Below are positions 555 to 63,901 of a stretch of DNA of 64,000 nt, piece by piece. Under the pieces are notes generated by a model that made no database searches, was not told the DNA's origin, and was given only the letters and a program-made list of their open reading frames with translations. This DNA comes from Betaproteobacteria bacterium. Its GTDB lineage: Bacteria > Pseudomonadota > Gammaproteobacteria > Burkholderiales > SG8-39. Where the stretch lies: the NCBI GenBank assembly GCA_947482825.1, contig CANKMT010000008.1, positions 7,634-71,633 of the forward strand, written 5' to 3'. Each line of letters starts with the position of its first letter. Position 1 is the stretch's first letter. Position numbers and translations under genes: made by a program.

Positions 555-2666
555 CTATTCATCGCATTCGAGTTTGAAATCGACGATCTGCGCCCCAGAG
601 CTGGTCATGATCACCGGATTCAGGTCGATCGAAAGAATCGAGGTCTCTGCAATCGAAAGCAATGCGACCTTCGAAACGAGGATCGCAAGGGCGTCGACGT
701 TCAGCGGCGCGCGCCCTCTTGCCCCGGCAAGCAAAGGAAAAAATTTCGCGCGCTCTAGCAGGCGCTTGGCCTGCGCCGCGTCGAACGGCGCCAGGCGCAT
801 GACGGTTTCCTTCATGATTTCGACGTAAATGCCGCCCAGTCCGACCACGACCAGCGGACCGAAAATCGGGTCCCGTTTCATTCCCACGAACACTTCCAGA
901 GATCCCCGGGTCATTTTCTGCACCAGGATTCCCTCCTTGTCGGCGATCACTATCGCGTCGAGCGCGGCGCAGCATCGGTCCAGCTGAGGGTCTGATTCGA
1001 TATCCAGGTGCACGCCCCCGATGTCGCTCTTGTGCGCGAGGTTCCGCGCGATGAGCTTGACCGCAACCGGATAGCCGAGGCTGGCCGCCGCGCGCTTCGC
1101 TTCCGCCGCGTTACTCGCCAGAATGCCCGGCGCGAGATCGAGCTCATAACCGCGCAGCAAGTCGATCTGAGCCTGGTATCGGCCCAAGTCGTCAAACGCC
1201 CGAGCCTTCGACCGAGCCTGAGCCGCATCGGCAGGCGGGCTGTAGTCCAATGCCACGCGCTCGCGTCCGGCCTCCCAGCGTAGCCGCACGGCAATGACCT
1301 TCGCGCATCGGACCGGGTCGGAAAAAACCGGAATCCCGCTTTTCCTGAGTTGATCGAGCGCGTCCTGTTTTGCCGCGATCCACGCGACTCCGAACAAACA
1401 CTTCGATTCGTCGGCGAGGCGGCTCAATTCCTCGGCAAGCGCACTTCCTTGCCGCCAAATCAAGTTGACGCACAGCATGACGGCATCGTACTCGCCGCTA
1501 TGCAGGACATCGCGCACGGTGTCCGTCATCAAGACCGGGTTGAAGATCACGTTCGCCGTCATGTCGATCGGGTTTTGCAACGAGGCGAACGCGGGCAGAC
1601 GTTGCGCCAGCGCCGCGCGCAAGGTATCCGAAGGCGGCGCGACGTCCATTCCTTCGCTCGTGCAGGTATCGGCCATCAGGACGCCGGCGCCTCCGGAGTG
1701 ACTCAGGATGGCCACGCGCGGGCGGCGAGGGGCGTCCATCGCCAGCGCGGGCGCCGAAAATATCTTCAATAGATCGATCAACTCCTCGATGCTCTGAGCC
1801 CGGATCAAGCCGGATTCGTCGAACGCCGCTCGGTACACCTCGTCCGCACCCGCCAAGGCACCCGTGTGCGACTGCACCGCCCGCCCGCCCGCTTCGCTTG
1901 CGCCGACTTTGATCAGGACCACCGGCTTTCCGGCGAGCGCCGCCTTGATTGCCGCAGCGCGGAATTTTTGTCCGTCGCGGATGCTCTCCACATATCCGGC
2001 GATGATTCGGATCTCCGGATCCTCGGCAAAATAGTCGCAGAAGTCGCCGAACTCCAGATCCCCTTCGTTGCCGGTGCTGGCGAAATAGCCGATTCCGATT
2101 TTCTCCGCGTGCGCAAGCGCCGTGATCGCGGTGCCGACCGCGCCGCTCTGGCTCACGAATCCAACCGGACCGCCGACGAGGCCTTCCTGATCGTAGACCT
2201 GGCTGATGGAGGGAAAGATCTTTTCCCAGGCGTTCGCGCTGCCAACTGAATTCGGGCCGACGAAGCGGATGCCTTTCTCCAGGGCTTTCAGCCTGAGCCT
2301 TTCCTGCAGCCGGACGCCCTCGGGACCGATTTCCGCGAAGCCCGACGAGATGACCACCGCGGACTTGACCTGCCCCTTTCGGCACTCATTAAAAAGATCT
2401 TCGACACGCGCCGCTCCGATGGCCACCACCAGCAGGTCGACCTCCCCCGGAATATCCGCCATCGATCGGACGCAGGCGATGCCGCCGATCTGCTCGAGCG
2501 TGGGATGGACGAGATAGATCTTTCCCGCGTAGGCGTGCCTGGTCAGAAAGGCCAGCGGCAGCGAGCCGAGCTTTGCCCGATCGGCTGAAGCGCCTGCGAT
2601 TGCAATGCTCTTGGGACGCAGCATCGCGGCTATCGATGCCCGGGTTGCATCCGCGCCGATCGTCAT
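555..2666 (-). CDS. ADP/NDP-forming acyl-CoA synthetase (acetate--CoA ligase family, CoA-binding + ATP-grasp fusion)
   Basis: 703-aa ORF. The N-terminus (KSIAIAGAS...) is a CoA-binding Rossmann domain, the middle is succinyl-CoA-ligase-like and the C-terminus is an ATP-grasp. The length is typical for fused alpha/beta ACD enzymes. Confidence 0.85.
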   Translation of the reverse strand: MTIGADATRASIAAMLRPKSIAIAGASADRAKLGSLPLAFLTRHAYAGKIYLVHPTLEQIGGIACVRSMADIPGEVDLLVVAIGAARVEDLFNECRKGQVKSAVVISSGFAEIGPEGVRLQERLRLKALEKGIRFVGPNSVGSANAWEKIFPSISQVYDQEGLVGGPVGFVSQSGAVGTAITALAHAEKIGIGYFASTGNEGDLEFGDFCDYFAEDPEIRIIAGYVESIRDGQKFRAAAIKAALAGKPVVLIKVGASEAGGRAVQSHTGALAGADEVYRAAFDESGLIRAQSIEELIDLLKIFSAPALAMDAPRRPRVAILSHSGGAGVLMADTCTSEGMDVAPPSDTLRAALAQRLPAFASLQNPIDMTANVIFNPVLMTDTVRDVLHSGEYDAVMLCVNLIWRQGSALAEELSRLADESKCLFGVAWIAAKQDALDQLRKSGIPVFSDPVRCAKVIAVRLRWEAGRERVALDYSPPADAAQARSKARAFDDLGRYQAQIDLLRGYELDLAPGILASNAAEAKRAAASLGYPVAVKLIARNLAHKSDIGGVHLDIESDPQLDRCCAALDAIVIADKEGILVQKMTRGSLEVFVGMKRDPIFGPLVVVGLGGIYVEIMKETVMRLAPFDAAQAKRLLERAKFFPLLAGARGRAPLNVDALAILVSKVALLSIAETSILSIDLNPVIMTSSGAQIVDFKLECDE

Positions 2667-2858
2667 TGGCTCCTCCTTGACGTGCCGCGATTTTTGAATT
2701 CGACGCGGACCCGAAATGCTAGCTGAATTCGCCTACAATAGTGCAGACCGGTTCGCAGGCAATGCTCGTGGGGTGGATCTTTCGCGAGAGTGGTGGAGTT
2801 CGATTCGGTTGGGTCTGGCAAGCGGCATCCGATCTATTCGCGCTAAGGACATTCGCCG

Positions 2859-4145
2859 ATGGAACTCTCGATCCTGATGGGCGCCCTGCTGGTGATGATC
2901 TTCATCGGTGCGCCGATTGCCGTGACGATGGCGGTGCTGCCCGCCATCTACATTCTGGTCACCGGCGAATTGCCGCTCAGCACGGTCCCCTACCAGATGT
3001 ATGAAGCGATCTCCAGCGCGCCGCTGATCGCGATCCCGTTCTTTCTGCTCACCGGAGCGCTGATGAATTCCGGCCAGATCACCGAGCGGCTGCTGCTGCT
3101 CAGCCGGGAACTGGTCGGCCGCGTACGCGGCGGTCTTGCGCAGACCACGGTGCTGGTGAGCATGATGTTCGCCGGAATGAGCGGCTCGGCGGTGGCCGAC
3201 ACCGCTGCGGTTGGCGGCGTCCTGATCCCGGCCATGAAAAAAGCCGGATATCACGGCCCTTTTTGTGCCGCGCTGGCCGCCGTCTCCGGAACGATCGGCG
3301 GAATCGTCCCCCCGAGCATAGTCATGATCCTGCTTGCCAGCACCATGGGGCTGTCCACGGGCGGCCTGTTCATGGCGGGCATCCTGCCAGGCGTCCTGAT
3401 CGGGCTCATGCTGATGGGCGTCGCGTATGTGATTTCAGTCCGGCGGAACTATCCGCGCTACGAGGAGCCTTTCCGTTGGCGCGCGCTGGGCGCGGCGTTC
3501 GTCGGCGCCCTGCCGCCGCTGCTCATACCGCTTGTGATCATTCTAGGCATCGTCTTCGGCGTGTTTACCGCAACCGAAGCGGGCGCAATGACGGTGATCG
3601 TCGCAGCGATGATCGGGTTGTTTCTATATCGAACGCTGACGTTCCGCGAACTTGGCGCGACCGTGTCGCACACGGTCAAGATCACTTCTTCGGTCTTTTT
3701 CATCCTCGCCGCGTCGGGTCCGTTTTCCTGGCTGTTGAACCGCATCGGCGCCCTCAAGGGACTCGAAGGCTGGTTCATGGGGTTCGCCGGCTCGCCTTTC
3801 ACATTCACGCTGCTCTTGATCGGCTTCATTCTGCTCGTGGGCACGGTCATCGAGACGATTCCCGCCATCGTGGTGCTGGCGCCGACCTTGATCAAGGTCT
3901 GCGTGGCCGCCGGCTTTCATGAAATCCAGGCCGCCCTCGTCCTGGTGGTCGGGTTCATCATGGGTGCGGTCACGCCACCGGTGGGGATCGTCTACTTCAC
4001 CGCGGCTTTCATCGCCGAAGAGCCGCTCGAAAAAGTTGCCGTCGCCTTGATTCCATTCATGCTCGTCGAAGTGGTGGCGATGTTCCTGATTCTGTACTTT
4101 CCCGCGCTGACCCTGTGGATGCCGAAGTTGCTGGGGTTCGTGTGA
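2859..4145 (+). CDS. dctM: TRAP transporter large permease (DctM family)
   Basis: 428 aa, polytopic, with DctM-typical motifs (IPFFLLTGALMN, MFAGMSGSAVAD). Confidence 0.92.
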   Translation: MELSILMGALLVMIFIGAPIAVTMAVLPAIYILVTGELPLSTVPYQMYEAISSAPLIAIPFFLLTGALMNSGQITERLLLLSRELVGRVRGGLAQTTVLVSMMFAGMSGSAVADTAAVGGVLIPAMKKAGYHGPFCAALAAVSGTIGGIVPPSIVMILLASTMGLSTGGLFMAGILPGVLIGLMLMGVAYVISVRRNYPRYEEPFRWRALGAAFVGALPPLLIPLVIILGIVFGVFTATEAGAMTVIVAAMIGLFLYRTLTFRELGATVSHTVKITSSVFFILAASGPFSWLLNRIGALKGLEGWFMGFAGSPFTFTLLLIGFILLVGTVIETIPAIVVLAPTLIKVCVAAGFHEIQAALVLVVGFIMGAVTPPVGIVYFTAAFIAEEPLEKVAVALIPFMLVEVVAMFLILYFPALTLWMPKLLGFV

Positions 4146-4693: not shown

Positions 4694-5478
4694 GGATCGG
4701 CCGTGTGCTGCGCGGGCTCTGTGCCGAAATTCTGCTGCCGTAGCCAGACCTTCACCTCCGCCGCGAGACGCACCATGGCCGGGTTAGTCGGGTCGCGCGG
4801 CCGCTCGAAATCGACCACCTTGATCTCTTCGACGCGTCCGGGCCGCGGCGCCATGATCGCGATGCGGTCCGAAAGCTTGATCGCCTCGTCGATGCTGTGC
4901 GTCACGAAGATCACCGTTTTGGGTTCGCGCTGCCAGATCTTGAGCAACTCGTCCTGCATGTATTCGCGCGTCTGGATATCGAGCGAGGCGAACGGCTCGT
5001 CCATCAGCAGGATGGAGGGATTGACCGCAAGCGCGCGCGCGATGCTGACGCGTTGGCGCATGCCTCCGGAGAGTTCCCTCGGGTAGCGTGATTCGAAACC
5101 CTGGAGGCCGACCAGCGCAATGTAGTGCTCGACCAGTCGCGATTGTTCGCTTTGCGACAGGCGCTTGCGCTGCAGTCCGTAGCGCACGTTCTGTGCAACC
5201 GTGTACCAGGGAAAAAGCGCGAACTCCTGGAACACGACCGCGCGCTCCCAACCGGGCTTGGAGATCAGTTCTCCCCCGACCCGCAGCTCACCGCGCGAAG
5301 GCTGCTCGAATCCGGCGAGCAGGTTGAGCAAGGTCGTCTTGCCGCAACCGCTCGGGCCGACGATCGAGAAGAATTCGTTTTTCTCCACTTCGAGATTGAC
5401 GTCGTGCAAGGCGAGCAAGGGCTCGCCCTTCATCGACACGTGCACTTTGCTCACATTGGAAACGCTGACCTGGGACAT
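4678..5478 (-). CDS. ABC transporter ATP-binding protein (NitT/TauT family)
   Basis: Walker A GPSGCGKTT, signature LSGGMRQR, Walker B LLMDEPF. Its 3' end overlaps the dctQ 3' end by 16 nt (convergent). Confidence 0.93.
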   Translation of the reverse strand: MSQVSVSNVSKVHVSMKGEPLLALHDVNLEVEKNEFFSIVGPSGCGKTTLLNLLAGFEQPSRGELRVGGELISKPGWERAVVFQEFALFPWYTVAQNVRYGLQRKRLSQSEQSRLVEHYIALVGLQGFESRYPRELSGGMRQRVSIARALAVNPSILLMDEPFASLDIQTREYMQDELLKIWQREPKTVIFVTHSIDEAIKLSDRIAIMAPRPGRVEEIKVVDFERPRDPTNPAMVRLAAEVKVWLRQQNFGTEPAQHTADPQIIS

Positions 5479-5500: not shown

Positions 5501-6364
5501 CTACTGGCCGCGGTGCCAGGGCATGACCAGCAACGCGGCCTTGCGCATCAGAAAGTCCAGCACCAGCCCCAGCACGCCGATCAGGACCATGCCCAGAAGA
5601 ATGTAGTCGCTGCGAAAAACGGTTCGCGCGTTGTTGATCATGAAGCCCAGTCCGCTCGGCGCGGCGACCAATTCGCCGGCGACGAGGGCCATCCACCCTA
5701 TGCCCAGGCCGATGCGCATGCCGGTGAATATGTTCGGAAGGGCGCCCGGGAGGACGACGGTGAAAAACAATTCTCCGGGGCGCGCACCGAGGCTGAGTCC
5801 CGCGCGCACCAGATAAGGCTCGACATCGCGCGCCCCGGCCATCGAGTTGAGGACGATCGGAAAGAACGCCGCAAGAAAAATAATGTAGACGATCTGAGTG
5901 TCGCCAATGCCGAACCAGAGAATGCTCAATGGAATCCAGGCCAGCGGCGGGATCGGACGGATGAATTCGATCAACGGATCGACCGCCTTGCGGAACTTCG
6001 GGGACCATCCCATCGCCAATCCCAGGGGTACGCCGATCAACGTGGCCGTACCCACCGCAGTGAGGACTCTTGAAAGACTGGCCAGCACGTGCGTGTGGAG
6101 TACTCCGCGTTCGATCAAATCCATCGCCGCGGAGAACACCGCCGTGGGCGGCGGCAGCATCACGTCAAGCTGCGGGTTGAAGCGCACGCCCAGCACGCTG
6201 ACGGTTTGCCAGACCGCGATGAACAGCACGAGCAGCCAAAAATCGCCGACCCGGGAAAGGACTCGCCGCCATCCCCCCGGCGGTGGCGGCACCATCGATG
6301 CCGCCAACTGCGCCAACTGCTCCGGGGTCGCCTTGATTCGTGTGGGGGAGACGGCCTCCGTCAT
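5501..6364 (-). CDS. ABC transporter permease (NitT/TauT family, BPD_transp_1)
   Basis: 287 aa, six TM segments, EAA-like loop. ATGA overlap with the upstream receptor gene. Confidence 0.9.
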   Translation of the reverse strand: MTEAVSPTRIKATPEQLAQLAASMVPPPPGGWRRVLSRVGDFWLLVLFIAVWQTVSVLGVRFNPQLDVMLPPPTAVFSAAMDLIERGVLHTHVLASLSRVLTAVGTATLIGVPLGLAMGWSPKFRKAVDPLIEFIRPIPPLAWIPLSILWFGIGDTQIVYIIFLAAFFPIVLNSMAGARDVEPYLVRAGLSLGARPGELFFTVVLPGALPNIFTGMRIGLGIGWMALVAGELVAAPSGLGFMINNARTVFRSDYILLGMVLIGVLGLVLDFLMRKAALLVMPWHRGQ

Positions 6365-21421: not shown

Positions 21422-21682
21422 CTATTGCACGGTGATGTTCGCGTCGCTCACGATCTTGCGGAATTTGGCGATTTCCGCGCGCAGGTAGGCGCCGAATTGC
21501 GCCGGCGCCAGGCCCGAGGTTTCCGCCCCCAGCTTCGCCATGTTGGCGCGGATATCGGGCATGCGAATGACCTCGGCCACGTCCGCATGGATCTTCGCCA
21601 CGATGTCCGGCGAGGTGACCGGTCGAACCTGAATGGACAGCGCAGTCACGGTTGCGGTCATCGATCTCCTCCTGGAATTCAA
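21422..21682 (-). pseudogene. C-terminal fragment (~65 aa) of a TTT/Bug-family solute receptor
   Basis: SPDIVAKIHADVAEVIRMPDIRANMAKLGAETSGLAPAQFGAYLRAEIAKFRKIV matches only the last ~20% of the five full-length Bug receptors in this window. There is no signal peptide and no N-domain. Confidence 0.6.
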
Positions 21683-21928: not shown

Positions 21929-22118
21929 TCCATGGACCGTGGCGCTCCTCTATGGTTCTCCCTCTTTTCCCGGTTGAGAAAAAAGCCACGAAAGGTTAAC
22001 GCCCGCGGCCTCACATAGGATCTTTGCGCTTTAGCCTTAGGCAAATGGCAGCAATTCGGCTGGTGGACCAATAGGGACGCGGGGGTCAGGCCAAAAATGG
22101 CAGTAATGAGGCTGCGGC

Positions 22119-49710: not shown

Positions 49711-49800
49711 ATGAACGACGAATCACGGATGGCGGTGGTGACCGGTGCGGGATCCGGCCTTGGCCGCGCGATTGCGATGCGCCTCGCGCGGCGAGCCCAC
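49711..49800 (+). pseudogene. N-terminal remnant (~30 codons) of an SDR gene
   Basis: MNDESRMAVVTGAGSGLGRAIAMRLARR is a perfect SDR TGxxxGxG start. All SDR similarity is then lost. The frame happens to stay open into the downstream receptor gene. Confidence 0.5.
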
Positions 49801-50010
49801 GCGCATGTGCTTGCCTGGGAGAGCCCCGCCACGCTCACCGGCGCGGCTGCCGCCCCCTTCAGCGTCAAGCAATCATCGGCTGGGGCGGGCGATCGCCCGT
49901 GCGCCTTCCGTCGTGCCCCTGCTGCCGCGAACCTCGGCTTGCGCGGCAGAGGCACCGCATGCATCCTTCGCCATGCCGACAGACCTGATCCTTCCAAGGG
50001 GGTACCAACC

Positions 50011-54598: not shown

Positions 54599-55348
54599 AT
54601 GGCCAACGCAATCGTGTTTGCACCAGGCGGATACCGCTACATCAGCGCGGTATTCCAGTACTCGGGAGGCGTCGCCGCCGAACCCGGCTTCGAGATCGAG
54701 CGCGCGCGGCTGGCGAAACCGGTTCCGATCGCCGACGGCTTCCGCCTGGTCGAGGCCCACCTCAAGGCGATCGGTCGGCCAAGCACGGCATTCGCTGCCT
54801 GCGAGCTGCGCTCGCCGGCGCCCTTCACAGACCAGGGTTTCGTCGAGTTCAACCGCCACTATGTGCAGACCCTGGAGCGCTGGGGCATCTACAAGGACGA
54901 GGTCAACCCGGTGGCGCGCACCAACGTATGCCCGGAGCACGACAAGCCGCCCTCCTCGTCGCTCTACGCGTTTTCGTACACGGTTCCCGCCAGGTCCGGG
55001 CTGGGCAGCTTCATTGTCGCCGGGGGCGGCGAGGCCCCGGAAGGCCAGGGTCCGTACCGCAACCTCATCGTGCGGCTCGGCGAGACCAGCATCGACGCGA
55101 TGCGCGAGAAAGTGCGCTTCGTCATGGCGGAAATGCAGCGGCGCCTCGCGGCGCTCGGCTTTGGCTGGCAGGACGCGATCTCCACGCAGGCCTACACGGT
55201 GCGCGACATCGGCGCGCTGGTGGCCGATGAAATCGTCAAGCACGGCGCGGTGCCCGGCGGGCTCGAGTGGCACTACTGCCGCCCGCCGATCGTCGACCTG
55301 GAGTACGAGATGGACGTGCGCGGCGCGGCCAGCGAAATCGTCCTCTAA
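54599..55348 (+). CDS. hypothetical protein, tandem paralogue A (possible YjgF/RidA-like C-terminal half)
   Basis: ATG 54599 (MANAIVFAPGGYRYISAVFQYSGG...), 249 aa. Paralogous to the next gene. The C-terminus ...RPPIVDLEYEMDVRG is reminiscent of RidA-fold ends. I cannot assign a family with confidence. Confidence 0.7.
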   Translation: MANAIVFAPGGYRYISAVFQYSGGVAAEPGFEIERARLAKPVPIADGFRLVEAHLKAIGRPSTAFAACELRSPAPFTDQGFVEFNRHYVQTLERWGIYKDEVNPVARTNVCPEHDKPPSSSLYAFSYTVPARSGLGSFIVAGGGEAPEGQGPYRNLIVRLGETSIDAMREKVRFVMAEMQRRLAALGFGWQDAISTQAYTVRDIGALVADEIVKHGAVPGGLEWHYCRPPIVDLEYEMDVRGAASEIVL

Positions 55349-55375
55349 CCGATCCACAGCAAGGGAGCAGCCAAC

Positions 55376-56137
55376 ATGTCCAATGTCATCGTCTTCGCAC
55401 CCGGCGGCTACCGCTACATCAGCGCGGTGTTCCAGTACTCGGGAGGCGTCGCCGCCGAACCCGGCTTCGAAATCGAGCGCGCGCGGCTGGCGAAACCGGT
55501 TCCGATTGCCGACGGTTTCCGCCTGGTCGAGGCCCACCTCAAGTCGATCGGCCGGCCGAGCACGGCGTTCGCCGCGTGCGAGCTGCGCTCGCCGGCGCCT
55601 TTCACCGAGCAGGGCTTCATCGACTTCAACCGCCACTACGTGCAGACCCTGGAGCGCTGGGGCATCTACAAGGACGAGGTCAACCCGGTGGCGCGCACCA
55701 ACGTATGCCCCGAGCACCACAAACCGCCCTCGCCGTCGCTGTACGCGTTCTCATACACGGTGCCCGCGCGCTCCGGCAGGGGCAGCTTCATCATCGCCGG
55801 CGGCGCCGACGCGGTCGAGGTCGGCCCCGGCCCGCTGAACAGCCGTATCGTGCGCTACGGCGAGACCTCCACGGACGCGATGCGCGAGAAAGTGCGATTC
55901 ACCGTCGCCTTGATGGAGGAGCGGGTCAAGGCGCTCGGCTTCGGCTGGGCGGACGCATCGCACACCGAAGCCTATACCGTGCAGGACATCGGCGCCGTAG
56001 TCGGAGAGGAGGTGTTCGCCAAGGGCGCAGCGCCCGGTGGGCTGACCTGGACCTACTGCCGCCCGCCGGTGCTCGGCCTGGAATACGAGATGGACGTGCG
56101 CAGCGCCGCGCGGGAGATCGTCATCCGCCAGTCCTGA
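55376..56137 (+). CDS. hypothetical protein, tandem paralogue B
   Basis: 253 aa, MSNVIVFAPGGYRYISAVFQYSGG... The first ~135 aa are about 93% identical to paralogue A and the rest about 60%. Confidence 0.7.
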   Translation: MSNVIVFAPGGYRYISAVFQYSGGVAAEPGFEIERARLAKPVPIADGFRLVEAHLKSIGRPSTAFAACELRSPAPFTEQGFIDFNRHYVQTLERWGIYKDEVNPVARTNVCPEHHKPPSPSLYAFSYTVPARSGRGSFIIAGGADAVEVGPGPLNSRIVRYGETSTDAMREKVRFTVALMEERVKALGFGWADASHTEAYTVQDIGAVVGEEVFAKGAAPGGLTWTYCRPPVLGLEYEMDVRSAAREIVIRQS

Positions 56138-56200: not shown

Positions 56201-57643
56201 TCAATCCGACGGTCGGCGCGCCAGCAAATCCGCCGCCAGCGCCTCGTAGCCGGCGGCAGCACTCAACAGTTCGGCATCACCGCGCGGACGCCCGATCAGT
56301 TGCAATCCCATCGGCAAGCGCCCGGCCGGATCGAACCCGGCCGGCACGCTGATGGCCGGCAGGCCGGCGAAGGTTGCATAGAGCGTCACTTCCATCCAGC
56401 GGTGGTAAGTGTCCATCGTGCGCCCGGCCACTTCGCGCGGCCAGGTTTTCTCGAGAGCAAAGGGCCAGACCTGCGCCACCGGCAGCGCGAGCAGGTCGTG
56501 CTTTTCGAACAGGCCCAGAAGATGGGTTTGGAATTGGCTGCGCACGACGCTGGCGACCATGAACTCGGCGAAGGACAGGCCCTGCGCGCCGTCATGCTCC
56601 CAGAGTGCCTCGGGCTTGATGCGCTCGCGCGCGCCGGGCGTAACCATCGCCGCGGCAACATTGGGCGCCACAAGGGCCCGCCGCCAGACCAACCAGGCCT
56701 CCCACAGTCGTGCCGGGTCAAAGCCAAGCGAGGCTTGAATCACGTGCGCACCGGCGCTCCCCATGCGGGCCAGCGCCTGCTCACACACTTCGAGGATCCC
56801 CGCCTCGAAGGGCAAGTGGCCGCCGAGATCGCCGAGCCAGGCGATGCGAAGGTTGCGTACGTCGGCCTGCGGCCCGGGTACGAAGTTCGCTCCCCGCTCG
56901 CCCACGGACAGCGGTGCGCGCGGGTCGTACCCGGCCTGGATCGACAGCAGGCGGGCAAGATCGCGCACAGAGCGCGCCATCGGACCATCCGTGCTGAGCT
57001 GGCTGACCCACAGGTCGGGTCGCGGCCAGTTCGGCACCAGCCCCTGGCTCGGGCGCAGGCCGAAGACATGGTTCCAGCCGGCGGGATTGCGCAGCGACCC
57101 CATGAAGTCCGAGCCGTCCGCCAGCGGCAATAGGCGCCGGGCCAACGCCACAGCAGCCCCGCCGCTGCTGCCTCCAGCGCTCAACGCCGGATCCCAGGCG
57201 TTACCAGTGGCGCCGAACAGGGTGTTGTAAGTGTGCGAGCCGAGACCGAACTCGGGCATGTTGGTCTTGCCGATGACGATGCATCCGGCCGCCTTCATGC
57301 GCTCGACATAGAGGCTGTCCCGCGTCGCGATGGCATCCTTGAGCAGCGGCGAACCGAAGGTCGTGGCAAAGCCAACCGCGTGTCCGGTGTCCTTGATCGC
57401 CTGCGGAATGCCATGCAGCCAGCCTCGCGAAGCACCGCGCGCGAGTTCGGCGTCACGCTCGTCGGCCTGCCGCAAGAGCGCTTCCTCGGGCGCGAGGTTG
57501 ACGATCGCGTTGAAGCGCGGGTTCTGGAGCCGGATGCTGGCAAGGAAAGCCTGCATCACCTCCCGGCAAGAGACTCTGCGCGCATGAATGAGCGAGGACA
57601 GTGCGCCTGCGTCGAGCGCGGTCAGGTCGTGGCCATCGATCAT
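56201..57643 (-). CDS. amidase (amidase-signature family)
   Basis: GGSSGGAAVA signature with IKDT and GSLRNPA catalytic motifs. 480 aa. Confidence 0.9.
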   Translation of the reverse strand: MIDGHDLTALDAGALSSLIHARRVSCREVMQAFLASIRLQNPRFNAIVNLAPEEALLRQADERDAELARGASRGWLHGIPQAIKDTGHAVGFATTFGSPLLKDAIATRDSLYVERMKAAGCIVIGKTNMPEFGLGSHTYNTLFGATGNAWDPALSAGGSSGGAAVALARRLLPLADGSDFMGSLRNPAGWNHVFGLRPSQGLVPNWPRPDLWVSQLSTDGPMARSVRDLARLLSIQAGYDPRAPLSVGERGANFVPGPQADVRNLRIAWLGDLGGHLPFEAGILEVCEQALARMGSAGAHVIQASLGFDPARLWEAWLVWRRALVAPNVAAAMVTPGARERIKPEALWEHDGAQGLSFAEFMVASVVRSQFQTHLLGLFEKHDLLALPVAQVWPFALEKTWPREVAGRTMDTYHRWMEVTLYATFAGLPAISVPAGFDPAGRLPMGLQLIGRPRGDAELLSAAAGYEALAADLLARRPSD

Positions 57644-57755
57644 GAGTTGATCGTGCGTTTTTCGATTGCTGCCATTTTTTCTATGAGCCCCGCGTGGATA
57701 TTAGCTTCGCAGGCGAAATGCTGCCATCGCCTTGCGCACGGCCTGCGGGGCGGCA
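57642..57755. repeat. 114-bp direct repeat, copy R1 (abuts and includes the amidase start codon)
   Basis: Hand alignment with 61000-61113 gives the same length, no indels and 11 mismatches (about 90% identity). Confidence 0.85.
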
Positions 57756-57854
57756 ATTTCAAAAGATTCCGTCAAGCAACACAAGAACCAGAGCCGCTCT
57801 CCGGTCGGTCTGGCGTAGCGGCACCGGTTCACTCCACATAGGATCCGGACCCGG

Positions 57855-58817
57855 TCAATTCAGTTTGATGTTCCCTTCGCGCGCAACGCGCCCGTAAGCC
57901 TCGTACTCCTCTGCGGTCATCTGCCCCAGCCTCTCGGCCGTGACCGCCTTGGTAACGGCGTCCGTAGCCGCGATCCGTGCGATCACGTCGGGGCGCCTGA
58001 GGATCTTCTCAGTTTCAGCGCGCAGCCGTGCGACGATCGGCGCCGGCGTTCCAGCCTTCACATACAAAGCGTTCCACGAGCCAATCACGATGCCCGACAC
58101 GCCCGCTTCCTTCAGGGTCGGTACATCGGGCAGCGACGCGACGCGCTCCTCGTCGCCGGTGGCGAGCGCCCTTAGCTGCCCGTTCCGGATGAAGGCCAGC
58201 ACCGTCGGCAGAACCGCAAAGTACGCTTGCACCCTTCCCGTGAGGAGGTCCGCATTGACGGCTGCCGCCCCCTTGTACGGGACGTGCGTCATTGCACTGC
58301 CCGTGATCTTGTTGAACTGGACGCACGCGAGGTGGTTGAAGCTGCCTTCGCCGTGGGATGCGCAGGAAACCTTCGGGCCCCGGGCCTTGGCGTAGGCGGC
58401 GAACTCAAGGAGCGTCTTTCCCGGCACCGAAGGATGGACCACGAGCATGGACGGCAGCGCCGCGACGAACGCGATGGCCTCGAAATTCCTGGGACCGTAG
58501 TTCACATTGGGGTTCAGCGACGGCACGATCGCGGACGGCCCGTTGCCGCCCATCGCCAGCGCGTACCCATCTGCCGGCTGCGAGAGCACGTAGTTCAGCC
58601 CGACCGCGCCGCCGGCCCCGGCGCGGTTCTCGACCACGGCCGGCTGGCCGAGGGACTTTCCGAGCTCGTCGGCCATGATGCGGGTGAGCAGATCCGTGAT
58701 GCCACCGGCCGTGAATGGCGCGACCAGGGTCAGGCCCTTGCGCGGCCAGTCCTGCGCCGACGCCTTTCCCGGCAGCGCCAACAGGCAGGACACCAGCAGG
58801 GCGATCGGCGCCCTCAT
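57855..58817 (-). CDS. TTT substrate-binding protein, Bug/TctC family
   Basis: ATG 58817 (MRAPIALLVSCLLALPGKASAQ) forms an ATGA overlap with the DUF1028 gene stop. Confidence 0.9.
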   Translation of the reverse strand: MRAPIALLVSCLLALPGKASAQDWPRKGLTLVAPFTAGGITDLLTRIMADELGKSLGQPAVVENRAGAGGAVGLNYVLSQPADGYALAMGGNGPSAIVPSLNPNVNYGPRNFEAIAFVAALPSMLVVHPSVPGKTLLEFAAYAKARGPKVSCASHGEGSFNHLACVQFNKITGSAMTHVPYKGAAAVNADLLTGRVQAYFAVLPTVLAFIRNGQLRALATGDEERVASLPDVPTLKEAGVSGIVIGSWNALYVKAGTPAPIVARLRAETEKILRRPDVIARIAATDAVTKAVTAERLGQMTAEEYEAYGRVAREGNIKLN

Positions 58818-59524
58818 TTCGGTTCGTCCTGGAACGGCTCCAGCGGCCAGTTGATGCTGCGCAGGTGGTCCTTGTACAGCGCCGGGATGCCCTTTTGGTA
58901 GCAGTCGTCGTAGTAGGGCGCGAGGGGCTTGTACCACTCGTAGGCTTTGCGCAACTCGCTCGTCGGCTCCAGTGCCACGTCCACGCGCAGGTCGAACAGG
59001 GGGTGCGGGTTGGCGCCGGTGACGAAGAGCGCAGCCGACCGCTCCCCGCCCTGCTGCCCGCCGGCATCGCGGCCGGCTTCGAGCGCGAGGAGCAGGCGCT
59101 CCTCGAGTTCCTTTGCGCTGCTGCCGCGGAAGGCCGCCGCCATGTCGGTGACGACCTTCTGTCCTGCAAGGACGTTGCCGGCGATGGCGAAATCCTCCCC
59201 CTCGACGTGCCCCTTCCAGGGACGCGCGTCACTGCCGGTCACTGCCACGCCGCCCCCGGTCTGCCCGAGGTACATGTACTGGCGCTGGGACGAAAACGGG
59301 TCGGAATGGGTCACCGCATCGAAAATCCGCTTCGCCCCGAAACCCGCTTTCGCGAGTTCCACGGCAACCTCGAGCAGGTAGTTGTTGTGGCCCGCCTGGA
59401 CGACGACCACCGCCTTGCCGGGGATGATGCGGACGGCGCGGCGCCCGATGGCGGGCGTGCCCGTGGCCTGCGCAAATCCCAGCTTGCCGGTGCGTCCGCA
59501 CCGGCCTATGACCGTGAATGTCAT
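58814..59524 (-). CDS. DUF1028 family (Ntn-hydrolase-fold) protein
   Basis: MTFTVIGRCGRTGKLGFAQATG... is the typical DUF1028 N-terminus (Thr2 after Met). 236 aa. Confidence 0.75.
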   Translation of the reverse strand: MTFTVIGRCGRTGKLGFAQATGTPAIGRRAVRIIPGKAVVVVQAGHNNYLLEVAVELAKAGFGAKRIFDAVTHSDPFSSQRQYMYLGQTGGGVAVTGSDARPWKGHVEGEDFAIAGNVLAGQKVVTDMAAAFRGSSAKELEERLLLALEAGRDAGGQQGGERSAALFVTGANPHPLFDLRVDVALEPTSELRKAYEWYKPLAPYYDDCYQKGIPALYKDHLRSINWPLEPFQDEPK

Positions 59525-59527
59525 TCT

Positions 59528-60634
59528 CTATGCCCCCTTCGGATCAGGAAATTTGTAAAGCTCCGCCGCCGTCCCGCACAGGATGCGGTCCTTGTCGAGC
59601 GGCGACAGGAAGTCGCAGTGCTTGCGGATGTAGTCGAGCGACTGCGGGTAGGTCGCCGCGCGTTCCGAGGTCGGGTAGTCAGATCCCCACAGCAGTTTCG
59701 AGGCGCCCAGCCGCTTGTGGAAATCCCGGATCAGCGCCTGCGCTTCCGGGAATGGATAGTCCCAGCGGTTGCCCTGCATGACGGGGAACAGCAGTTCGAG
59801 CGTGATGTTGTCGGCTTCCAGCGTTTCCCAGAATTCCTCCGGGATCACGACGCGGCCGCCCGCGTCCATCAGCAGGCCCACATGCACGCCGTGGGTGAAC
59901 ACGCTCGGGATGTCCTTCCACCGCCGCGCCCACTTGCCCAGCCGCGCAACCTGCTCGACATAGTTGCGCTCGCGCGGAGCGCCCAGCGGCCGGACGTTCC
60001 AGAGCACGGGGATGCCGAGGCGCCGCACCTCCTCCCAGAACGGGTCGAACTTGGCGTCGTCGAACTTGTCGCGGAAATCGTAGCGAAAGAAGCCTTCGAT
60101 CTGGAAATGCAGGGCGGTGAGCCCGAGCACCTCGACGGCTCGCGTCAGCTCGCCGATCTGCTCCGGCTTGTCGCAATCGGCCTCGTGGATCTGCGCGGAG
60201 GCGGCAAACCGATGCGGGTACTTGCGGATGACCTCGCCGTAGTAGTCGTTGAGCATGCCGTACATGTGCGCGTTGTGCAGCATGGCCTTCTCGACGCCGG
60301 CGTAGTCCATCAACGCAATCATCTTCTCCGGCGCGAGGCTCTCCGGGAAGTTCGGCGCGAACATCTGCAGGTGGTGGTCCTTACCGTCGCGCGTCCATTC
60401 CATCCTGCCGAACTCGCCGTAGCGGAAATTCACCTCGACCATGTTCGACCACCCCATGCCCTTGCCGTCGCTGAGCGTCTGCTCGGTCACCACCCGGCCG
60501 GTCGCCGTCTCGATCACGGGCTGCGAGGGCGCAACCACGTGCACCTGCGCTGCGCGCATGTGCTCCTCGGGCGAAGCGTAGCCGACATGGTCGTGCAGCG
60601 AGGGAAAGGCATGGGCATGGGCGTCGATGATCAT
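59528..60634 (-). CDS. amidohydrolase-2 family metal-dependent hydrolase/decarboxylase
   Basis: MIIDAHAHAF start and the WGSDYP motif near the C-terminus. Confidence 0.82.
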   Translation of the reverse strand: MIIDAHAHAFPSLHDHVGYASPEEHMRAAQVHVVAPSQPVIETATGRVVTEQTLSDGKGMGWSNMVEVNFRYGEFGRMEWTRDGKDHHLQMFAPNFPESLAPEKMIALMDYAGVEKAMLHNAHMYGMLNDYYGEVIRKYPHRFAASAQIHEADCDKPEQIGELTRAVEVLGLTALHFQIEGFFRYDFRDKFDDAKFDPFWEEVRRLGIPVLWNVRPLGAPRERNYVEQVARLGKWARRWKDIPSVFTHGVHVGLLMDAGGRVVIPEEFWETLEADNITLELLFPVMQGNRWDYPFPEAQALIRDFHKRLGASKLLWGSDYPTSERAATYPQSLDYIRKHCDFLSPLDKDRILCGTAAELYKFPDPKGA

Positions 60635-60719
60635 TTGCGTATCTCATTTTTTCGTGTGCCGGAAAGGCGCTGCTGGATATGGGTGCCTTCCGACTTGAGC
60701 AGGGCAACCATCCGCTCGC

Positions 60720-60740
60720 GGTGTATAGGAAACTCAAACC
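60720..60740 (-). mobile_element. IS91/ISCR-family oriIS-like terminal sequence
   Basis: The minus strand reads GGTTTGAGTTTCCTATACACC, about 70 nt downstream of the transposase-fragment stop. It resembles the conserved ...TTCCTATAC(C/A)C oriIS ends of ISCR/IS91 elements as I recall them. Confidence 0.55.
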
Positions 60741-60776
60741 ACCTTTTTCTCCACGCACGACTGTATCACCAGGCCG

Positions 60777-60796
60777 AGAAGCGATCAGAAGCGATC
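60777..60796. repeat. perfect tandem 10-mer (AGAAGCGATC x2) between the transposase-fragment stop and the oriIS-like end
   Basis: Read directly from the sequence: agaagcgatcagaagcgatc. Confidence 0.9.
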
Positions 60797-60811
60797 AATT
60801 TGCGCGGTGTT

Positions 60812-61018
60812 TCATGGATCCCCTCTCTCGCACGGGTTTATCGGTCGCCGCGCCGGTGAGCGCGGCGGCGCTCTCGCCGGCAAGCCAAGGTGCGTGAGGA
60901 TCCTGACGATCACCGCAGGCTCTTCGATGGCGGCGATGATCTTGAACTCACCTCCACACTGCGGGCAGTGTTCGAGATCGATGTCGAACACCCGCTTTAA
61001 TGAGTTGATCGCGTGCTT
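60812..61018 (-). pseudogene. IS91-family (Y2 HUH rolling-circle) transposase, C-terminal 68-codon fragment
   Basis: The minus-strand frame reads KHAINSLKRVFDIDLEHCPQCGGEFKIIAAIEEPAVIVRILTHLGLPARAPPRSPARRP...*. The CPxCGG-x-hKIIAxI...ILxHLGLPxRAPPxxPAR tail is characteristic of IS91/IS801/ISCR transposases. The frame is closed by TAA at 61019-61021, exactly where repeat R2 begins. Confidence 0.7.
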
Positions 61019-61113
61019 TTAGATTGCTGCCATTTTTTCGATAGACCCCGCGTGGATATTAGCTTTGCGGGCGAAATGCTGCCATCGCCTTGCGCACGGC
61101 TTGCGGGGCGGCA
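61000..61113. repeat. 114-bp direct repeat, copy R2
   Basis: See R1. The position equivalent to the amidase ATG is ATT here. Confidence 0.85.
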
Positions 61114-61131: not shown

Positions 61132-62106
61132 TCAGTTGGGCTTGGCGCCGGTTTGTTTCACGATCCGGGCCCATTTCGCGACATCGGCGCGCACGATCGC
61201 GGCAAACTCTTCCGGCGTGTCGGTCGCGGGTTCGGCGCCCTGCTTGAACAAGGCGTCACGAATTTCGGCGCCGGCGACGACGCGACGGATCTCGGTGTTC
61301 AGGCGGTCGACGATGTTCTTCGGGGTTCCTGCCGTCGCGAATACGCCGTACCAAGCCACCGCTTCATAACCGGGCAGGCCCGACTCGGCCACGGTCGGGT
61401 AGTCCGGCGCCACCGGGCTCCGCTTTGCGCTTGTGATCGCAAGCGCGCGCACCTTGCCACCTTTGAGCAGCGCCTGCGAACTGAACACCTGCACGATCGA
61501 GACTTGCACGTCGTTGTTGGTCACAGCGGTCATCATCGGTGCGACCCCGCCGAAGGGCACGCTCAGCATGTCGACCCCCGCCATGCTCGTAAACAGCGCT
61601 CCGCTCAATAGCGTCAGGCTGCCGAAGGAGGCATAGGCGAGCTTGCCGGGCTGCGCCTTGGCCAACGCAATCAGTTCCTGGATGTTCTTTGCGGGGACCG
61701 AGTTGTGCACCAGGATCAGGTTCGGGAACTCGGCCATGCGCGTGATCGCCGCAAAATCCTTGACCGGGTCGTAGGACGGCTTGTCGTACAGGCTGAAATT
61801 GATCCCGTGCGTGCCGGTGGTGCCCATTTCGAGCGTGTAGCCGTCGGGCGCCGCTCGGGCGACCACCTCCGAGCCTATCGTCCCGTTGGCGCCTGCACGG
61901 TTCTCCACATACACCTGCTGGCCGAGCACCTCGGTGAGTTTTTGCGTCAGCAGGCGCGCCGCGACATCGGTCGGTCCGCCCGGCGCGAACGGGACGACCA
62001 TGCGCACCGGTTTGGACGGCCACGCTTCCTGGGATTGCGCGGCGACGGGCGCAAGCAGCGAAGCGATCGCCAGCAGGCAGATTGTTGCGATTCCGGGCTT
62101 CTTCAT
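61132..62106 (-). CDS. TTT substrate-binding protein, Bug/TctC family
   Basis: ATG 62106 (MKKPGIATICLLAIASLLAPVAAQS) preceded by AAGGAG. Confidence 0.9.
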   Translation of the reverse strand: MKKPGIATICLLAIASLLAPVAAQSQEAWPSKPVRMVVPFAPGGPTDVAARLLTQKLTEVLGQQVYVENRAGANGTIGSEVVARAAPDGYTLEMGTTGTHGINFSLYDKPSYDPVKDFAAITRMAEFPNLILVHNSVPAKNIQELIALAKAQPGKLAYASFGSLTLLSGALFTSMAGVDMLSVPFGGVAPMMTAVTNNDVQVSIVQVFSSQALLKGGKVRALAITSAKRSPVAPDYPTVAESGLPGYEAVAWYGVFATAGTPKNIVDRLNTEIRRVVAGAEIRDALFKQGAEPATDTPEEFAAIVRADVAKWARIVKQTGAKPN

Positions 62107-62116
62107 GTTTGACTCC

Positions 62117-63901
62117 TTATGCAAGTTTCGATTCTTCGATCAGCGTGGGCAGCCAGACCCCGATGACCGCAGGCGATCCGTTGCGAACCGCGGCCAGGCC
62201 TCGCTTCAGCGCAGGCACCAGATCCTCGGACTCGCGCACGTTTTCACCATAGCCATTGGCCGCTTCCGCCACTTTCGCGTAATCCGGCGGCGGGTCGAAC
62301 TGGCCGCCAGCGTAGCCGCCGTCCTTCACCGCGTAGCCTTCAGGATAGGTTTTTCTCAGGACCGTGGTGCCGGTCGAGTACGAACGGTTGACGAACACCA
62401 CGGTGAGGAACGGCGCCTTGTGGTGCGCAGCCGACCAAAGTGCAGCGATCGGGTTGTCGAACATGAAGTAACCGTCGCCGGTCGCAAGGACCACATCCTG
62501 GTCGGGCCGGGCCAGCTTGGCGCCAAACGCGGCACCCGCCCCCCAACCGCCGGAAGAGCTGCCGACCTTGAAGAACGTGCCGGGCTGGTTGCGAGCGCTG
62601 TAATTCATCACGGCGTCCGAGTTGCTGATCGCGTCATCGAGCAGGATCGCTTCAGGCTCCAGAAGCTGGCCGATCTGGTAGGCGACCCACAGCGGATGGA
62701 TCGGGCGGCGCTGTCCCGCGCGCTGCGCGAGGTCGTTGGCCTGCGCTACTTGCTTTCGCTTGGCATCCGCGAGCCGTGCGCGGCGGGCCGCAATCCGGGT
62801 GAGATCGCTTTTGTCGAGCAAACTCGTGGCCGCTTCGAAAATCGCCCGGGCTGCAGACGCTGCATCCGCAGGCAACCACAGGTCGGCCTGCCAGGCCATG
62901 GTCTTGAACCGCGACATCACCGGATCGACATCGACGAAAGCGACCTTGGCCTGCGGCGATGGCTCGTCGTTCGGCGGCATCCAGGGCACCGGGCTCTCAA
63001 TGACCAGCAGCACATCCGCATCCTTGGGCGACGGGCCTGTGCCGAACAGGTCGTGCGAGCGCGGGAAAGTGAGCGCGCTCGCAAGCCGGTCTTGCATGAC
63101 CGGGACGGCGAGCAGTTCGGCCAGCCGCACGAGTTCGGGGACCGATGCGGGGTTGCGGCCCGAGTTGGAGGTATAGATGCAGGGATTGTCGGCCTTGATC
63201 AGCCATCCCGCGATGCGTTTTGCGTCGTCCGGGTCCGGCCAGGCCGGCCGTGCGACGCCAAGCTGATCGCGGGTCGGAAATCGGATCGTGCCGCCGGGCA
63301 CCGGCGTCAGTACCGCCTCGCGCGGCAACGCGAGGTACACCGGGCCTTTGGGCTCGCTCACCGCCACCTGCAAGAGGCGGCTGATCATCAGCCCCGGGTT
63401 GTCCTGGCTCTCCAGCCGATGATCCATCTTGGTGTACTGGCGAACGATTTCGCCTTGGTCGCGCGGTTCCTGGTACCACTGGATCGGGTGATCTCGCCCT
63501 CCCGCCATCGTGCCCGGATACGCGCGCGGGCCGGTGCCCGAAGTCATCAGCACCGGATAAGACCCTTTCCATGCTGTGTGAAGAGCCGCTCCTTTGTTCA
63601 GCAGGCCTACGTCCACGTGCGCCGCTGTCGCGGAAGGCTTTCCGGTGACCATCGCGTTGCCCATCGCCGCATTCAGAGCAACGCCTTCGTGCATCATGGT
63701 GACGAGGCGCGGCGCAAGACGCCCGAGCGCCGCGGCCTTGGCGATCGCTTCCTGGTAGAAGCCGATCTCGGAGCCGGAGGTGAAGAACAGGTTGTCGATG
63801 CCGCCCGCCTTCATGGCCGCGACGATCGCGTCGGACCATTGTTCGGCCGGGTATTCCCCCCACGCCCTGCCTGCCGTTGCGCTGCCTTCCTCCGACGCCA
63901 T
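62117..63901 (-). CDS. thiamine-diphosphate-dependent enzyme (acetolactate-synthase-large-subunit-like)
   Basis: ThDP motif TGDGYFMF...VVFVNRSY and an N-terminal Pyr domain (FFTSGSEIGFYQE). I prefer the ATG at 63901 (MASEEGSATAG...) over the track start at 63988. Confidence 0.85.
   Translation of the reverse strand: MASEEGSATAGRAWGEYPAEQWSDAIVAAMKAGGIDNLFFTSGSEIGFYQEAIAKAAALGRLAPRLVTMMHEGVALNAAMGNAMVTGKPSATAAHVDVGLLNKGAALHTAWKGSYPVLMTSGTGPRAYPGTMAGGRDHPIQWYQEPRDQGEIVRQYTKMDHRLESQDNPGLMISRLLQVAVSEPKGPVYLALPREAVLTPVPGGTIRFPTRDQLGVARPAWPDPDDAKRIAGWLIKADNPCIYTSNSGRNPASVPELVRLAELLAVPVMQDRLASALTFPRSHDLFGTGPSPKDADVLLVIESPVPWMPPNDEPSPQAKVAFVDVDPVMSRFKTMAWQADLWLPADAASAARAIFEAATSLLDKSDLTRIAARRARLADAKRKQVAQANDLAQRAGQRRPIHPLWVAYQIGQLLEPEAILLDDAISNSDAVMNYSARNQPGTFFKVGSSSGGWGAGAAFGAKLARPDQDVVLATGDGYFMFDNPIAALWSAAHHKAPFLTVVFVNRSYSTGTTVLRKTYPEGYAVKDGGYAGGQFDPPPDYAKVAEAANGYGENVRESEDLVPALKRGLAAVRNGSPAVIGVWLPTLIEESKLA

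Follow-up and report, generated by a model that had tools for sequence, protein, structure and literature searches.

A three-gene module joined to an ISCR-type end and bracketed by a duplicated intergenic segment in a freshwater betaproteobacterium

How a block of genes comes to sit, with a piece of a mobile element at one end, in the spacer between two resident genes is the question raised by a 64,000-nucleotide stretch of contig CANKMT010000008.1 (here called the window), which derives from a lake-water metagenome. The resident locus, on a freshwater Burkholderiales chromosome, consists of a gene for a thiamine-diphosphate (TPP) enzyme, a gene for a TctC/Bug-family solute receptor (Bug2), a 132-bp spacer, and an amidase gene. 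In the window, a 3,244-bp insert (57756-60999) lies here between two direct copies, R1 and R2, of a 114-bp segment (R). Read along the minus strand, the order is R2, a stub of an ISCR-group (insertion sequence common region) element running from the transposase gene to the oriIS end, the 3' end of an iclR-type gene, genes for Amidohydro_2, DUF1028, and TctC proteins, a trailer, and R1. An allele of the same locus without the insert exists in a related population. The account that we favor, with about an even chance of being right, is that a circle carrying R, the stub, the iclR remnant, and the three-gene module entered the locus by one homologous crossover in R.

The initial annotation of this DNA, made from the letters alone, had predicted that related genomes lacking the insert would read Bug - R - amidase. 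Eighty GTDB loci with amidase homologues (at most 75% identity) have unrelated neighbors and offered no synteny and no empty site. However, one amidase in the large protein collection, at 96% identity, led to a 6.3-kb contig of a neighboring sample accession (L177), which represents a related population at about 94% nucleotide identity, and this contig carries the predicted allele. Its gene order is HigB/HTH (helix-turn-helix) - TPP enzyme - TctC - 132 nt - amidase; it has one copy of R and contains neither ISCR sequence nor any module gene. Window positions 63997-61025 align to it at 94.4% and positions 57755-56172 at 93.4%; the two alignments overlap on the single R, which in a three-way alignment continues as R2 does on the Bug2 side and as R1 does on the amidase side. 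Relative to L177, the window has gained 3,244 bp and a second 114-bp copy of R. Contigs from the Logan collection for four lake runs break inside R because R1 and R2 share an exact 31-mer, so that the joint from R2 to R1 cannot appear in them.

The two copies of R are identical at 103 of 114 positions, with a start-to-start spacing of 3358, and in pairwise alignment their similarity begins and ends sharply at 57642-57755 and 61000-61113, in agreement with the ~90% identical 114-bp direct repeats first described. R fills the Bug2-amidase spacer from 18 nt past the Bug2 stop codon to the amidase start codon. The local spacer is duplicated as a whole. The outer sides of the two copies run into the resident genes, and the inner sides form the two insert junctions. 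The features of the locus are listed below; each element named in the initial annotation was recovered by Pfam, repeat search, or alignment, at its position or within a few bases of it.

62117-63901, minus strand: TPP enzyme gene, resident flank (Pfam TPP_enzyme_N/M/C; called as 594 amino acids in L084 and L177; 98.6% amino acid identity to L177)
61132-62106, minus strand: Bug2, resident TctC/Bug-family solute receptor (Pfam TctC, E = 6e-61; 98.5% amino acid identity to L177), its stop 18 nt ahead of R2
61000-61113, no strand: R2, the Bug2-side (left) copy of the 114-bp intergenic segment (repeat search, family D3)
60719-60999, minus strand: ISCR-group stub, 280 nt, 5'-truncated and internally deleted, with its oriIS end intact (nhmmer with the family profile)
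60847-60999, minus strand: C-terminal 51 codons of the ISCR transposase, KRVFDIDLEHCPQCGG...PPRSPAR (NF052416; tblastn with L130)
60778-60797, no strand: tandem 10-mer, two copies of GAAGCGATCA as read on the plus strand (sequence)
60720-60740, minus strand: oriIS end GGTTTGAGTTTCCTATACACC, the element boundary (family-copy alignment; comparison with ISCR1 and ISCR2)
60634-60717, minus strand: last 28 codons of an iclR-type regulator gene, cut by the oriIS end (translation; local match to IclR C termini)
59528-60634, minus strand: Amidohydro_2 gene (metal-dependent hydrolase/decarboxylase superfamily), first gene of the module (Pfam PF04909, E = 1e-15)
58814-59524, minus strand: DUF1028 gene (Pfam PF06267, E = 6e-48)
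57855-58820, minus strand: module TctC/Bug-family solute receptor (Pfam TctC, E = 1e-56; called as 320 amino acids in L002)
57756-57854, minus strand: insert trailer with a terminator-like hairpin at 57806-57786 (terminator scan)
57642-57755, no strand: R1, the amidase-side (right) copy, which extends through the AT of the amidase ATG (repeat search; L177 alignment)
56201-57643, minus strand: amidase gene, resident flank (Pfam Amidase, E = 5e-85; NCBIfam PRK07486, 656 bits; 95.8% amino acid identity to L177)

The exact Bug2 protein, taken from its ATG start, is present on same-strain contigs; the same look-up from a TTG start gave no match. The TctC protein of the module shares only 33% identity with Bug2, and the trailer (57756-57854) has no homology to any other fetched locus.

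The Bug2-side end of the insert is an ISCR end. The transposase fragment is a 68-codon open frame on the minus strand with its stop at 60812-60814; the part of it from 60999 to about 60847 is homologous to ISCR transposases. The fragment matches positions 450-487 of the NCBIfam model NF052416, "ISCR element clade Ia" (E = 2e-9), is 84% identical over 51 amino acids to a full-length relative (L130; tblastn), and is 40% identical to the C terminus of ISPps1. These matches bear out its original description as a C-terminal fragment of an IS91-family transposase, although Pfam itself is blind to the 68-amino-acid fragment. Plasmid searches by tblastn and blastn with the fragment region gave a single weak match, on a Piscinibacter plasmid, because the query is short; its identity was decided by the NCBIfam and profile searches. 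Zn_Tnp_IS91 and Y2_Tnp domains are present in the full-length relative, which scores 504 bits with NF052416 versus 112 bits with the general IS91 model NF033538. Its alignment with the annotated ISCR1 and ISVsa3 (ISCR2) transposases of thousands of plasmids covers more than 90% of its length at 50-54% identity, with ISVsa3 as its closest annotated transposase (53-54%), and it is only 36% identical to ISPps1. On the strength of the NF052416 match and of the likeness of L130 to ISCR1 and ISVsa3, the stub is classified as an ISCR-group (IS91-superfamily) remnant.

A DNA profile built from the 3' region of 11 family copies (431 positions) and searched with nhmmer aligns to the stub in two blocks, of which window positions 60999-60844 correspond to model positions 20-175 (E = 1.5e-51) and positions 60846-60719 to model positions 307-424 (E = 1.9e-21). 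An internal deletion has cost the stub ~131 nt, the genuine final codons of the transposase among them, and as a consequence the last ~12 codons of the 68-codon frame are non-native. The tandem 10-mer, which had been seen correctly as two copies on the plus strand, is an insertion relative to the family consensus and appears as an 11-nt insertion state in the nhmmer alignment. The initial annotation was also right that the transposase frame is cut exactly at the R2 boundary (60999/61000), since the profile aligns from 60999. Its proposal that the transposase decayed after acquisition applies to the internal deletion and the 10-nt duplication, but the cut at the edge of R2 is not gradual decay. 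Because the cut coincides with that edge, the fusion of R to the stub would have predated the event or arisen during it. A repeat search found no inverted repeats pairing the stub ends, and no terIS consensus for the family could be derived from 8 aligned upstream regions. The window copy is evidently a non-autonomous remnant, not a functional member of the family.

Two further observations concern family copies in this strain. A second, smaller ISCR tail remnant is found at 49798-49855 on the plus strand (nhmmer E = 6e-7; within window positions 49711-49876) and is 84% identical to the first stub over 50 nt. It directly follows the 29 N-terminal codons of a frame for a short-chain dehydrogenase (MNDESRMAVVTGAGSGLGRAIAMRLARRA), cutting that frame off, and lies upstream of a gene for an ABC-type substrate-binding protein; no oriIS end is detectable there. 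A contig of the same strain from sample ERZ27280310 (L002) is 99.6% identical to the window across the module. Its positions 1-85, ~85 nt situated upstream of the GGTGGTTTGAGTTTCC end that both share, agree with the family consensus and not with the window version of the stub, and represent either an assembly chimera through the multicopy end or an exchange between ISCR copies.

The oriIS end was compared with those of annotated ISCR1 (L178) and ISVsa3/ISCR2 (L179) copies. Downstream of the tail, ~20 independent family copies align up to a common GAAAAAGGTGGTTTGAATTTCCTATAC(G/A)C and are unrelated immediately past it, which makes this motif the element boundary. The window copy is one base off the family consensus, and its homology stops at 60719/60720; the bases beyond the end vary among family copies. 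The window end AAAAAGGTGGTTTGAGTTTCCTATACACC is identical at 24 of 29 positions to the ISCR1 end AAAAAGGTGGTTTATACTTCCTATACCCC, which lies 209 nt past the transposase stop in L178, in a copy downstream of qacEdelta1-sul1. This distance fits the 232 bp given for the ISCR1 oriIS region (PMC6218425). The corresponding ISCR2 end in L179, GGGCGTTTATTCTTCCTATACG, lies 212 nt past the stop. What had been called an oriIS-like end is a true ISCR-type end, as the motif shared with ISCR1 and ISCR2 and the profile match (E = 1.9e-21) indicate.

Copies of the family carry an outward-facing sigma-70-like motif, TTGACC-17-TATAGT or TACAGT (TAyAGT), ~45-70 nt inside the oriIS end. Judged by eye, it sits at the position of the ISCR1 promoter PCR1-1, which is experimentally active (PMC6218425). 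One family copy that was tested (L124) gave no match to the outward promoter motif. In the window copy, the -35 box reads TTGATC and the 10-nt duplication falls inside the spacer, lengthening it to 27 nt; a promoter scan of the stub gave no match. The duplication is predicted to disrupt the outward promoter-like motif of the family.

Where did the module come from? Relatives of its amidohydrolase with 77-91% amino acid identity are found at or near the end of operons that encode acyl-CoA dehydrogenases, a CoA ligase, MaoC hydratases, an IclR regulator, and RidA. In L176, which is the closest relative, the genes run IclR - amidohydrolase - DUF1028, and the ATG of the amidohydrolase gene is the exact point at which nucleotide homology to the window sets in. 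The oriIS end and this ATG are separated by 84 nt that read as an open frame, ERMVALLKSEGTHIQQRLSGTRKNEIRK*, whose TGA overlaps the ATG of the amidohydrolase gene, and the same ATGA overlap with the upstream gene is seen in the relatives. The end of this frame matches the IclR C terminus of L172 locally (IQQRLSGT versus IHQRLSGG), and there is a weak BLASTP match to L176 (E = 0.024). Pfam returned no match for the 28-amino-acid remnant, and its assignment rests on the local matches to IclR C termini. Since the frame is cut at the oriIS end, the ISCR end interrupts an iclR-type gene, and the module would have been cut out of another operon together with this junction. The truncated iclR end and the presence of the amidohydrolase relatives in other operons indicate that the module is foreign to this locus, as its description as an acquired module had implied. 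Its function is putatively catabolic and transport related.

R is not a neutral spacer. It contains a 65-nt core (57665-57730 in R1 and 61023-61088 in R2) bounded by two ATGGCAGCA boxes 47-50 nt apart, and the core is a dispersed repeat: at 80% likeness, at least 20 further contigs from the lake runs contain it, in either orientation and with differing surroundings, and the depths of these contigs resemble that of the window genome. The 12-mer AATGGCAGCAAT has four matches in the window versus 0.19 expected. A word-7 BLAST of R against the whole window gave no further full copy but revealed a third, weaker R-like copy at ~22030-22110 (63 nt at 22045-22107, 73% match), which is another member of the dispersed family. 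R has no Rfam match, and its folding energy is unremarkable, with no significant RNA structure. The core may be an REP-like (repetitive extragenic palindromic) or MITE-like (miniature inverted-repeat transposable) element or a protein-binding site. That R might be part of the ISCR element itself was rejected, as among 171 loci R occurs only in same-strain contigs. Identity between R1 and R2 reaches 23 and 25 nt past the core on either side, and R in L177 has the same 114-nt extent; R1 and R2 thus represent a genuine duplication of the local spacer. An 86-codon frame on the minus strand (21422-21682), within a few hundred bases of the R-like copy at 22 kb, resembles the C-terminal part of a TctC/Bug receptor, as judged by eye from the translation, and may be a truncated gene.

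The event that would account for this arrangement begins elsewhere. An ISCR-group element would have inserted into iclR, within an acyl-CoA/amidohydrolase operon of a donor with similar composition, leaving its oriIS abutting iclR. At a stage before the circle integrated, an ISCR copy lacking terIS would have been fused to R, after which the two would have moved together; since R carries locus-specific flanks, this fusion would have been made at this locus or at an orthologue. The fusion would parallel the fixed junction between ISCR1 and the 3'-conserved segment (3'-CS), where terIS has been lost and replication reads into neighboring DNA. Because the stub is without a transposase, any later movement would need this enzyme in trans, from full-length copies in the community. 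A circle of R, stub, iclR remnant, and module would then have entered the Bug2-amidase spacer, and a Campbell-type single crossover would have duplicated R. The internal deletion of ~131 nt and the 10-nt duplication would be the final decay. The outer and inner edges of R are exactly what a single crossover with such a circle gives, and an aberrant rolling-circle product rescued by recombination in the 3'-CS is the model for ISCR1 complex class 1 integrons (PMC7707992). We infer the circle, the homologous recombination, and any active role of the ISCR element from the product alone.

Several points weigh against this account. In IS91-type replication, which runs from oriIS through the element to terIS and beyond, it is the terIS-side DNA that is carried. 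With the module located on the oriIS side, no single simple step of the ISCR element can have moved it, and the account requires a minimum of two additional steps that were not observed; ISCR1 poses the same difficulty. The proposal of ISCR-mediated acquisition in the initial annotation is to that extent only partly upheld: the ISCR stub, the foreign genes, and the repeat layout are there, but not a module that the element could have moved directly. The stub contains neither the HUH nor the catalytic tyrosine motifs, only the last ~51 native codons being left, and terIS is absent, R2 directly abutting the transposase fragment at 60999/61000. No circular intermediate, donor locus, or module-free fusion of R and ISCR was found. 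Furthermore, the comparison of base composition and codon usage that had been suggested gave no sign of foreign origin. The module and its flanks show no contrast in G+C content (GC), and G+C at third codon positions (GC3), 0.85-0.89 in the module versus 0.79-0.83 in the flanks, was counted as no contrast, which points to a donor of similar composition.

The timing is a further difficulty. R in L177 matches R1 at 96 and R2 at 98 of 114 positions, whereas R1 and R2 are closer to each other (103 of 114). This pattern fits a duplication in the window lineage after its split from L177, followed by divergence of several per cent in each copy, and the decayed state of the stub would point the same way. 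However, of the 11 sites that distinguish R1 from R2, L177 shares six with R2, four with R1, and one with neither, and the R1-like and R2-like sites are interleaved, so that no single crossover can be mapped. This pattern would also allow for gene conversion or for a loss of the insert in L177. A single empty allele is compatible with insertion in the window lineage as well as with loss in L177 by recombination between R1 and R2.

That second polarity, with the filled state ancestral and the empty site of L177 produced by excision, is one of the rival explanations. Direct repeats 114 bp long and 90% identical can serve as substrates for deletion, and the single R of L177 does mix R1-type (4) and R2-type (6) states, but the closer match of R1 to R2 (103 of 114 versus 96-98 of 114 to L177) speaks for a later duplication, although gene conversion could mimic it. 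We consider loss distinctly improbable. The insert, with its truncated iclR gene and truncated ISCR element, would still be foreign, and loss would change the timing of the event but not its nature. Another rival is a one-step illegitimate insertion by end-joining or template-switch repair, in which breaks staggered by 114 nt are filled in to duplicate R, the ISCR stub is a passenger, and neither a circle nor homologous recombination takes part. The locus-specific flanks of R would then be explained without a prior fusion of R and ISCR. Neither junction shows convincing microhomology or an ISCR-specific target, and the stub is non-autonomous, all of which such an insertion would accommodate. 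It nevertheless seems unlikely to us. A target duplication of 114 bp is far beyond the footprints of transposases and repair, all of those known to us being far shorter; one insert end is exactly an ISCR fragment, as in ISCR1 integrons; and 5'-truncated stubs beside TctC-rich blocks recur in many other genomes.

The dispersed nature of the R core raises two more explanations. R1 and R2 could be independent members of the intergenic repeat family, their bracketing of the insert being coincidental or the result of recombination between members, and the presence of the core in at least 20 other lake contigs at roughly the depth of this genome, with a third, weaker copy at 22030-22110, is in keeping with this. 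However, the other members match the core only, at 80-90%, whereas R1 and R2 remain alike for 23 and 25 nt past it, and the alignment with L177, whose single R has the same extent, largely refutes independent origins; there is very little probability left for them. Equally little attaches to R as an attachment site, with the insert as a small integrase-less island moved by a site-specific recombinase acting in trans. Direct repeats do flank the insert, and the core is repeated around the genome, but no recombinase gene lies in or beside the insert, the repeats are 10% diverged throughout and lack the identical core typical of attachment (att) sites, and R has no significant structure or Rfam match. 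Entry of a circle by a single crossover in R is the reading that we retain.

Beyond the amidase gene, the window contains two tandem paralogous genes on the plus strand (54599-56137) of ~250 codons each, with no Pfam family. They are 92% identical over their first 300 nt and 69% identical over the 300 nt that follow; gene calling in a same-strain contig (L003) splits the second paralogue into two shorter genes.

The stub belongs to a family that is common in this environment. Homologues of the fragment in the large protein collection number 697, and the best 120 are all shorter than 112 amino acids and 75-98% identical. A metagenome scan gave 80 loci with the same tail, some with complete genes of 483-521 codons. 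In the four lake runs, the summed contig depth over the tail was 330-720, versus ~5-30 over neighboring single-copy genes, which indicates that the family is very abundant in the lake community. Of the 86 tail-bearing copies in the fetched loci, 10 are full length, a contig end interrupts 21, and the other 55 have an internal truncation; all 86 were found through the tail, and these counts are no proof that the 3' end is preferentially retained. The truncation points are scattered from residue 98 to residue 443. Family stubs lie inside long contigs among TctC-rich catabolic gene clusters, and 5'-truncated stubs recur in many other genomes.

Arrays in which like-oriented stubs or oriIS ends are separated by TctC or other genes are found at 6115-6309 and 7795-7986 of L089 and at 2332-2424 and 5001-5195 of L099. 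A further locus, L120, has three stubs, and L126 and L132 have two oriIS ends each. A Piscinibacter gummiphilus plasmid (L001; NZ_CP136337) carries a full annotated IS91-like transposase gene of the ISPps1 type (1937-3484) and, at 5010-5460 and apart from it, a tail fragment of 54 codons that has an oriIS-like end of its own (GTTTGAAATTCCTATGCGC). Genes with the annotations poly(ethylene terephthalate) hydrolase and lipase chaperones lie close by.

A broader scenario, which we regard as improbable, would make the 5'-truncated stubs, of which only the oriIS end and an outward promoter are left, not debris but products of premature rolling-circle termination, comparable to truncated Helitrons, that can still be mobilized in trans. 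They would then serve as portable promoter and recombination handles in the building of TctC-linked catabolic blocks in freshwater Burkholderiales, and the R-bracketed insert would be a natural, integron-free record of a capture pathway that has only been postulated for ISCR1.

ISCR elements have been studied almost only as carriers of antibiotic resistance in clinical plasmids, and their capture route has been modeled from integron structures; according to PMC6218425, transposition of an ISCR element had yet to be demonstrated by experiment. The present locus is an independent, nonclinical instance with metabolic cargo. It suggests a role for ISCR elements in shaping the catabolic gene repertoires of freshwater Burkholderiales, and the model of capture becomes comparable across many natural events.

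The closest parallel is the ISCR1 complex class 1 integron (3'-CS1 - ISCR1 - variable genes - 3'-CS2), to which the initial annotation had likened the layout of the window. The order of repeat, stub (transposase to oriIS), foreign genes, and repeat is indeed the same, with the oriIS facing the foreign genes in both; an actual ISCR1 integron, L178, reads sul1 - ISCR1 - variable genes. Variable genes sit on the oriIS side of ISCR1 (PMC6218425), and in the window the oriIS end at 60720 likewise faces the captured-gene side, that is, the iclR remnant and the module. The upstream repeat of the complex integron is also fused directly to the ISCR element without terIS, as in the sul1 - ISCR1 junction of L178. 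The oriIS ends are identical at 24 of 29 positions, and the model of a circle and homologous recombination is shared (PMC7707992). However, the complex integron repeats the qacEdelta1/sul1 3'-CS and retains a whole ISCR1 gene, whereas the window has no integron, repeats a 114-bp noncoding chromosomal spacer, and retains a 280-nt stub. The cargo of the former consists of resistance genes and that of the window is a putative catabolic/transport module. The host here is an uncultured freshwater betaproteobacterium, and the full-length transposase of the family is ~50% identical to that of ISCR1. The architecture is an analogue of the complex integron, not a member of that group.

Units of ISCR2 (ISVsa3) with sul2 (CR2-sul2) have the same kind of oriIS end, 212 nt past the stop, and are often truncated beside their cargo. 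They are tied to resistance genes and to integrative and conjugative elements, whereas the window has no such island context; in at least one case, ISCR2 units are reported to be moved by an island integrase (PMC9376610). IS91, IS1294, and IS801 belong to the same superfamily as the stub, whose full-length relatives carry Zn_Tnp_IS91 and Y2_Tnp; such elements have distinct oriIS and terIS ends and no inverted repeats, and they mobilize flanking DNA when terIS is missed. Their read-through carries terIS-side DNA, whereas the cargo of the window is on the oriIS side, and they are only distantly related to the present family (112 bits with NF033538 versus 504 bits with the ISCR clade model).

Elements of the ISCR8/ISPps1 type are, like the stub in the window, ISCR-group elements found with environmental nonresistance genes. 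ISCR8, which we take to be linked to ISPps1, occurs in multiple copies on environmental plasmids, and the Piscinibacter plasmid carries ISPps1 and a related stub near hydrolase genes. ISPps1 is only 36% identical to the full-length member of the window family, and we know of no report of a repeat-bracketed architecture for elements of this type. In the ISCR28 "sandwich," truncated ISCR remnants that retain oriIS flank the cargo, with an extra oriIS upstream (PMC12772301). The stub arrays at the related loci (L089, L099, L120, L126, and L132) resemble it, whereas the window has one stub only, and its other module boundary is R, not a second oriIS. ISCR elements in environmental nonresistance settings and remnants that retain oriIS are already known, and the locus adds no new kind of element or mechanism. 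Its value lies in matched filled and empty alleles, in a chromosomal setting without integron or resistance genes, for a family that is abundant in lake metagenomes.

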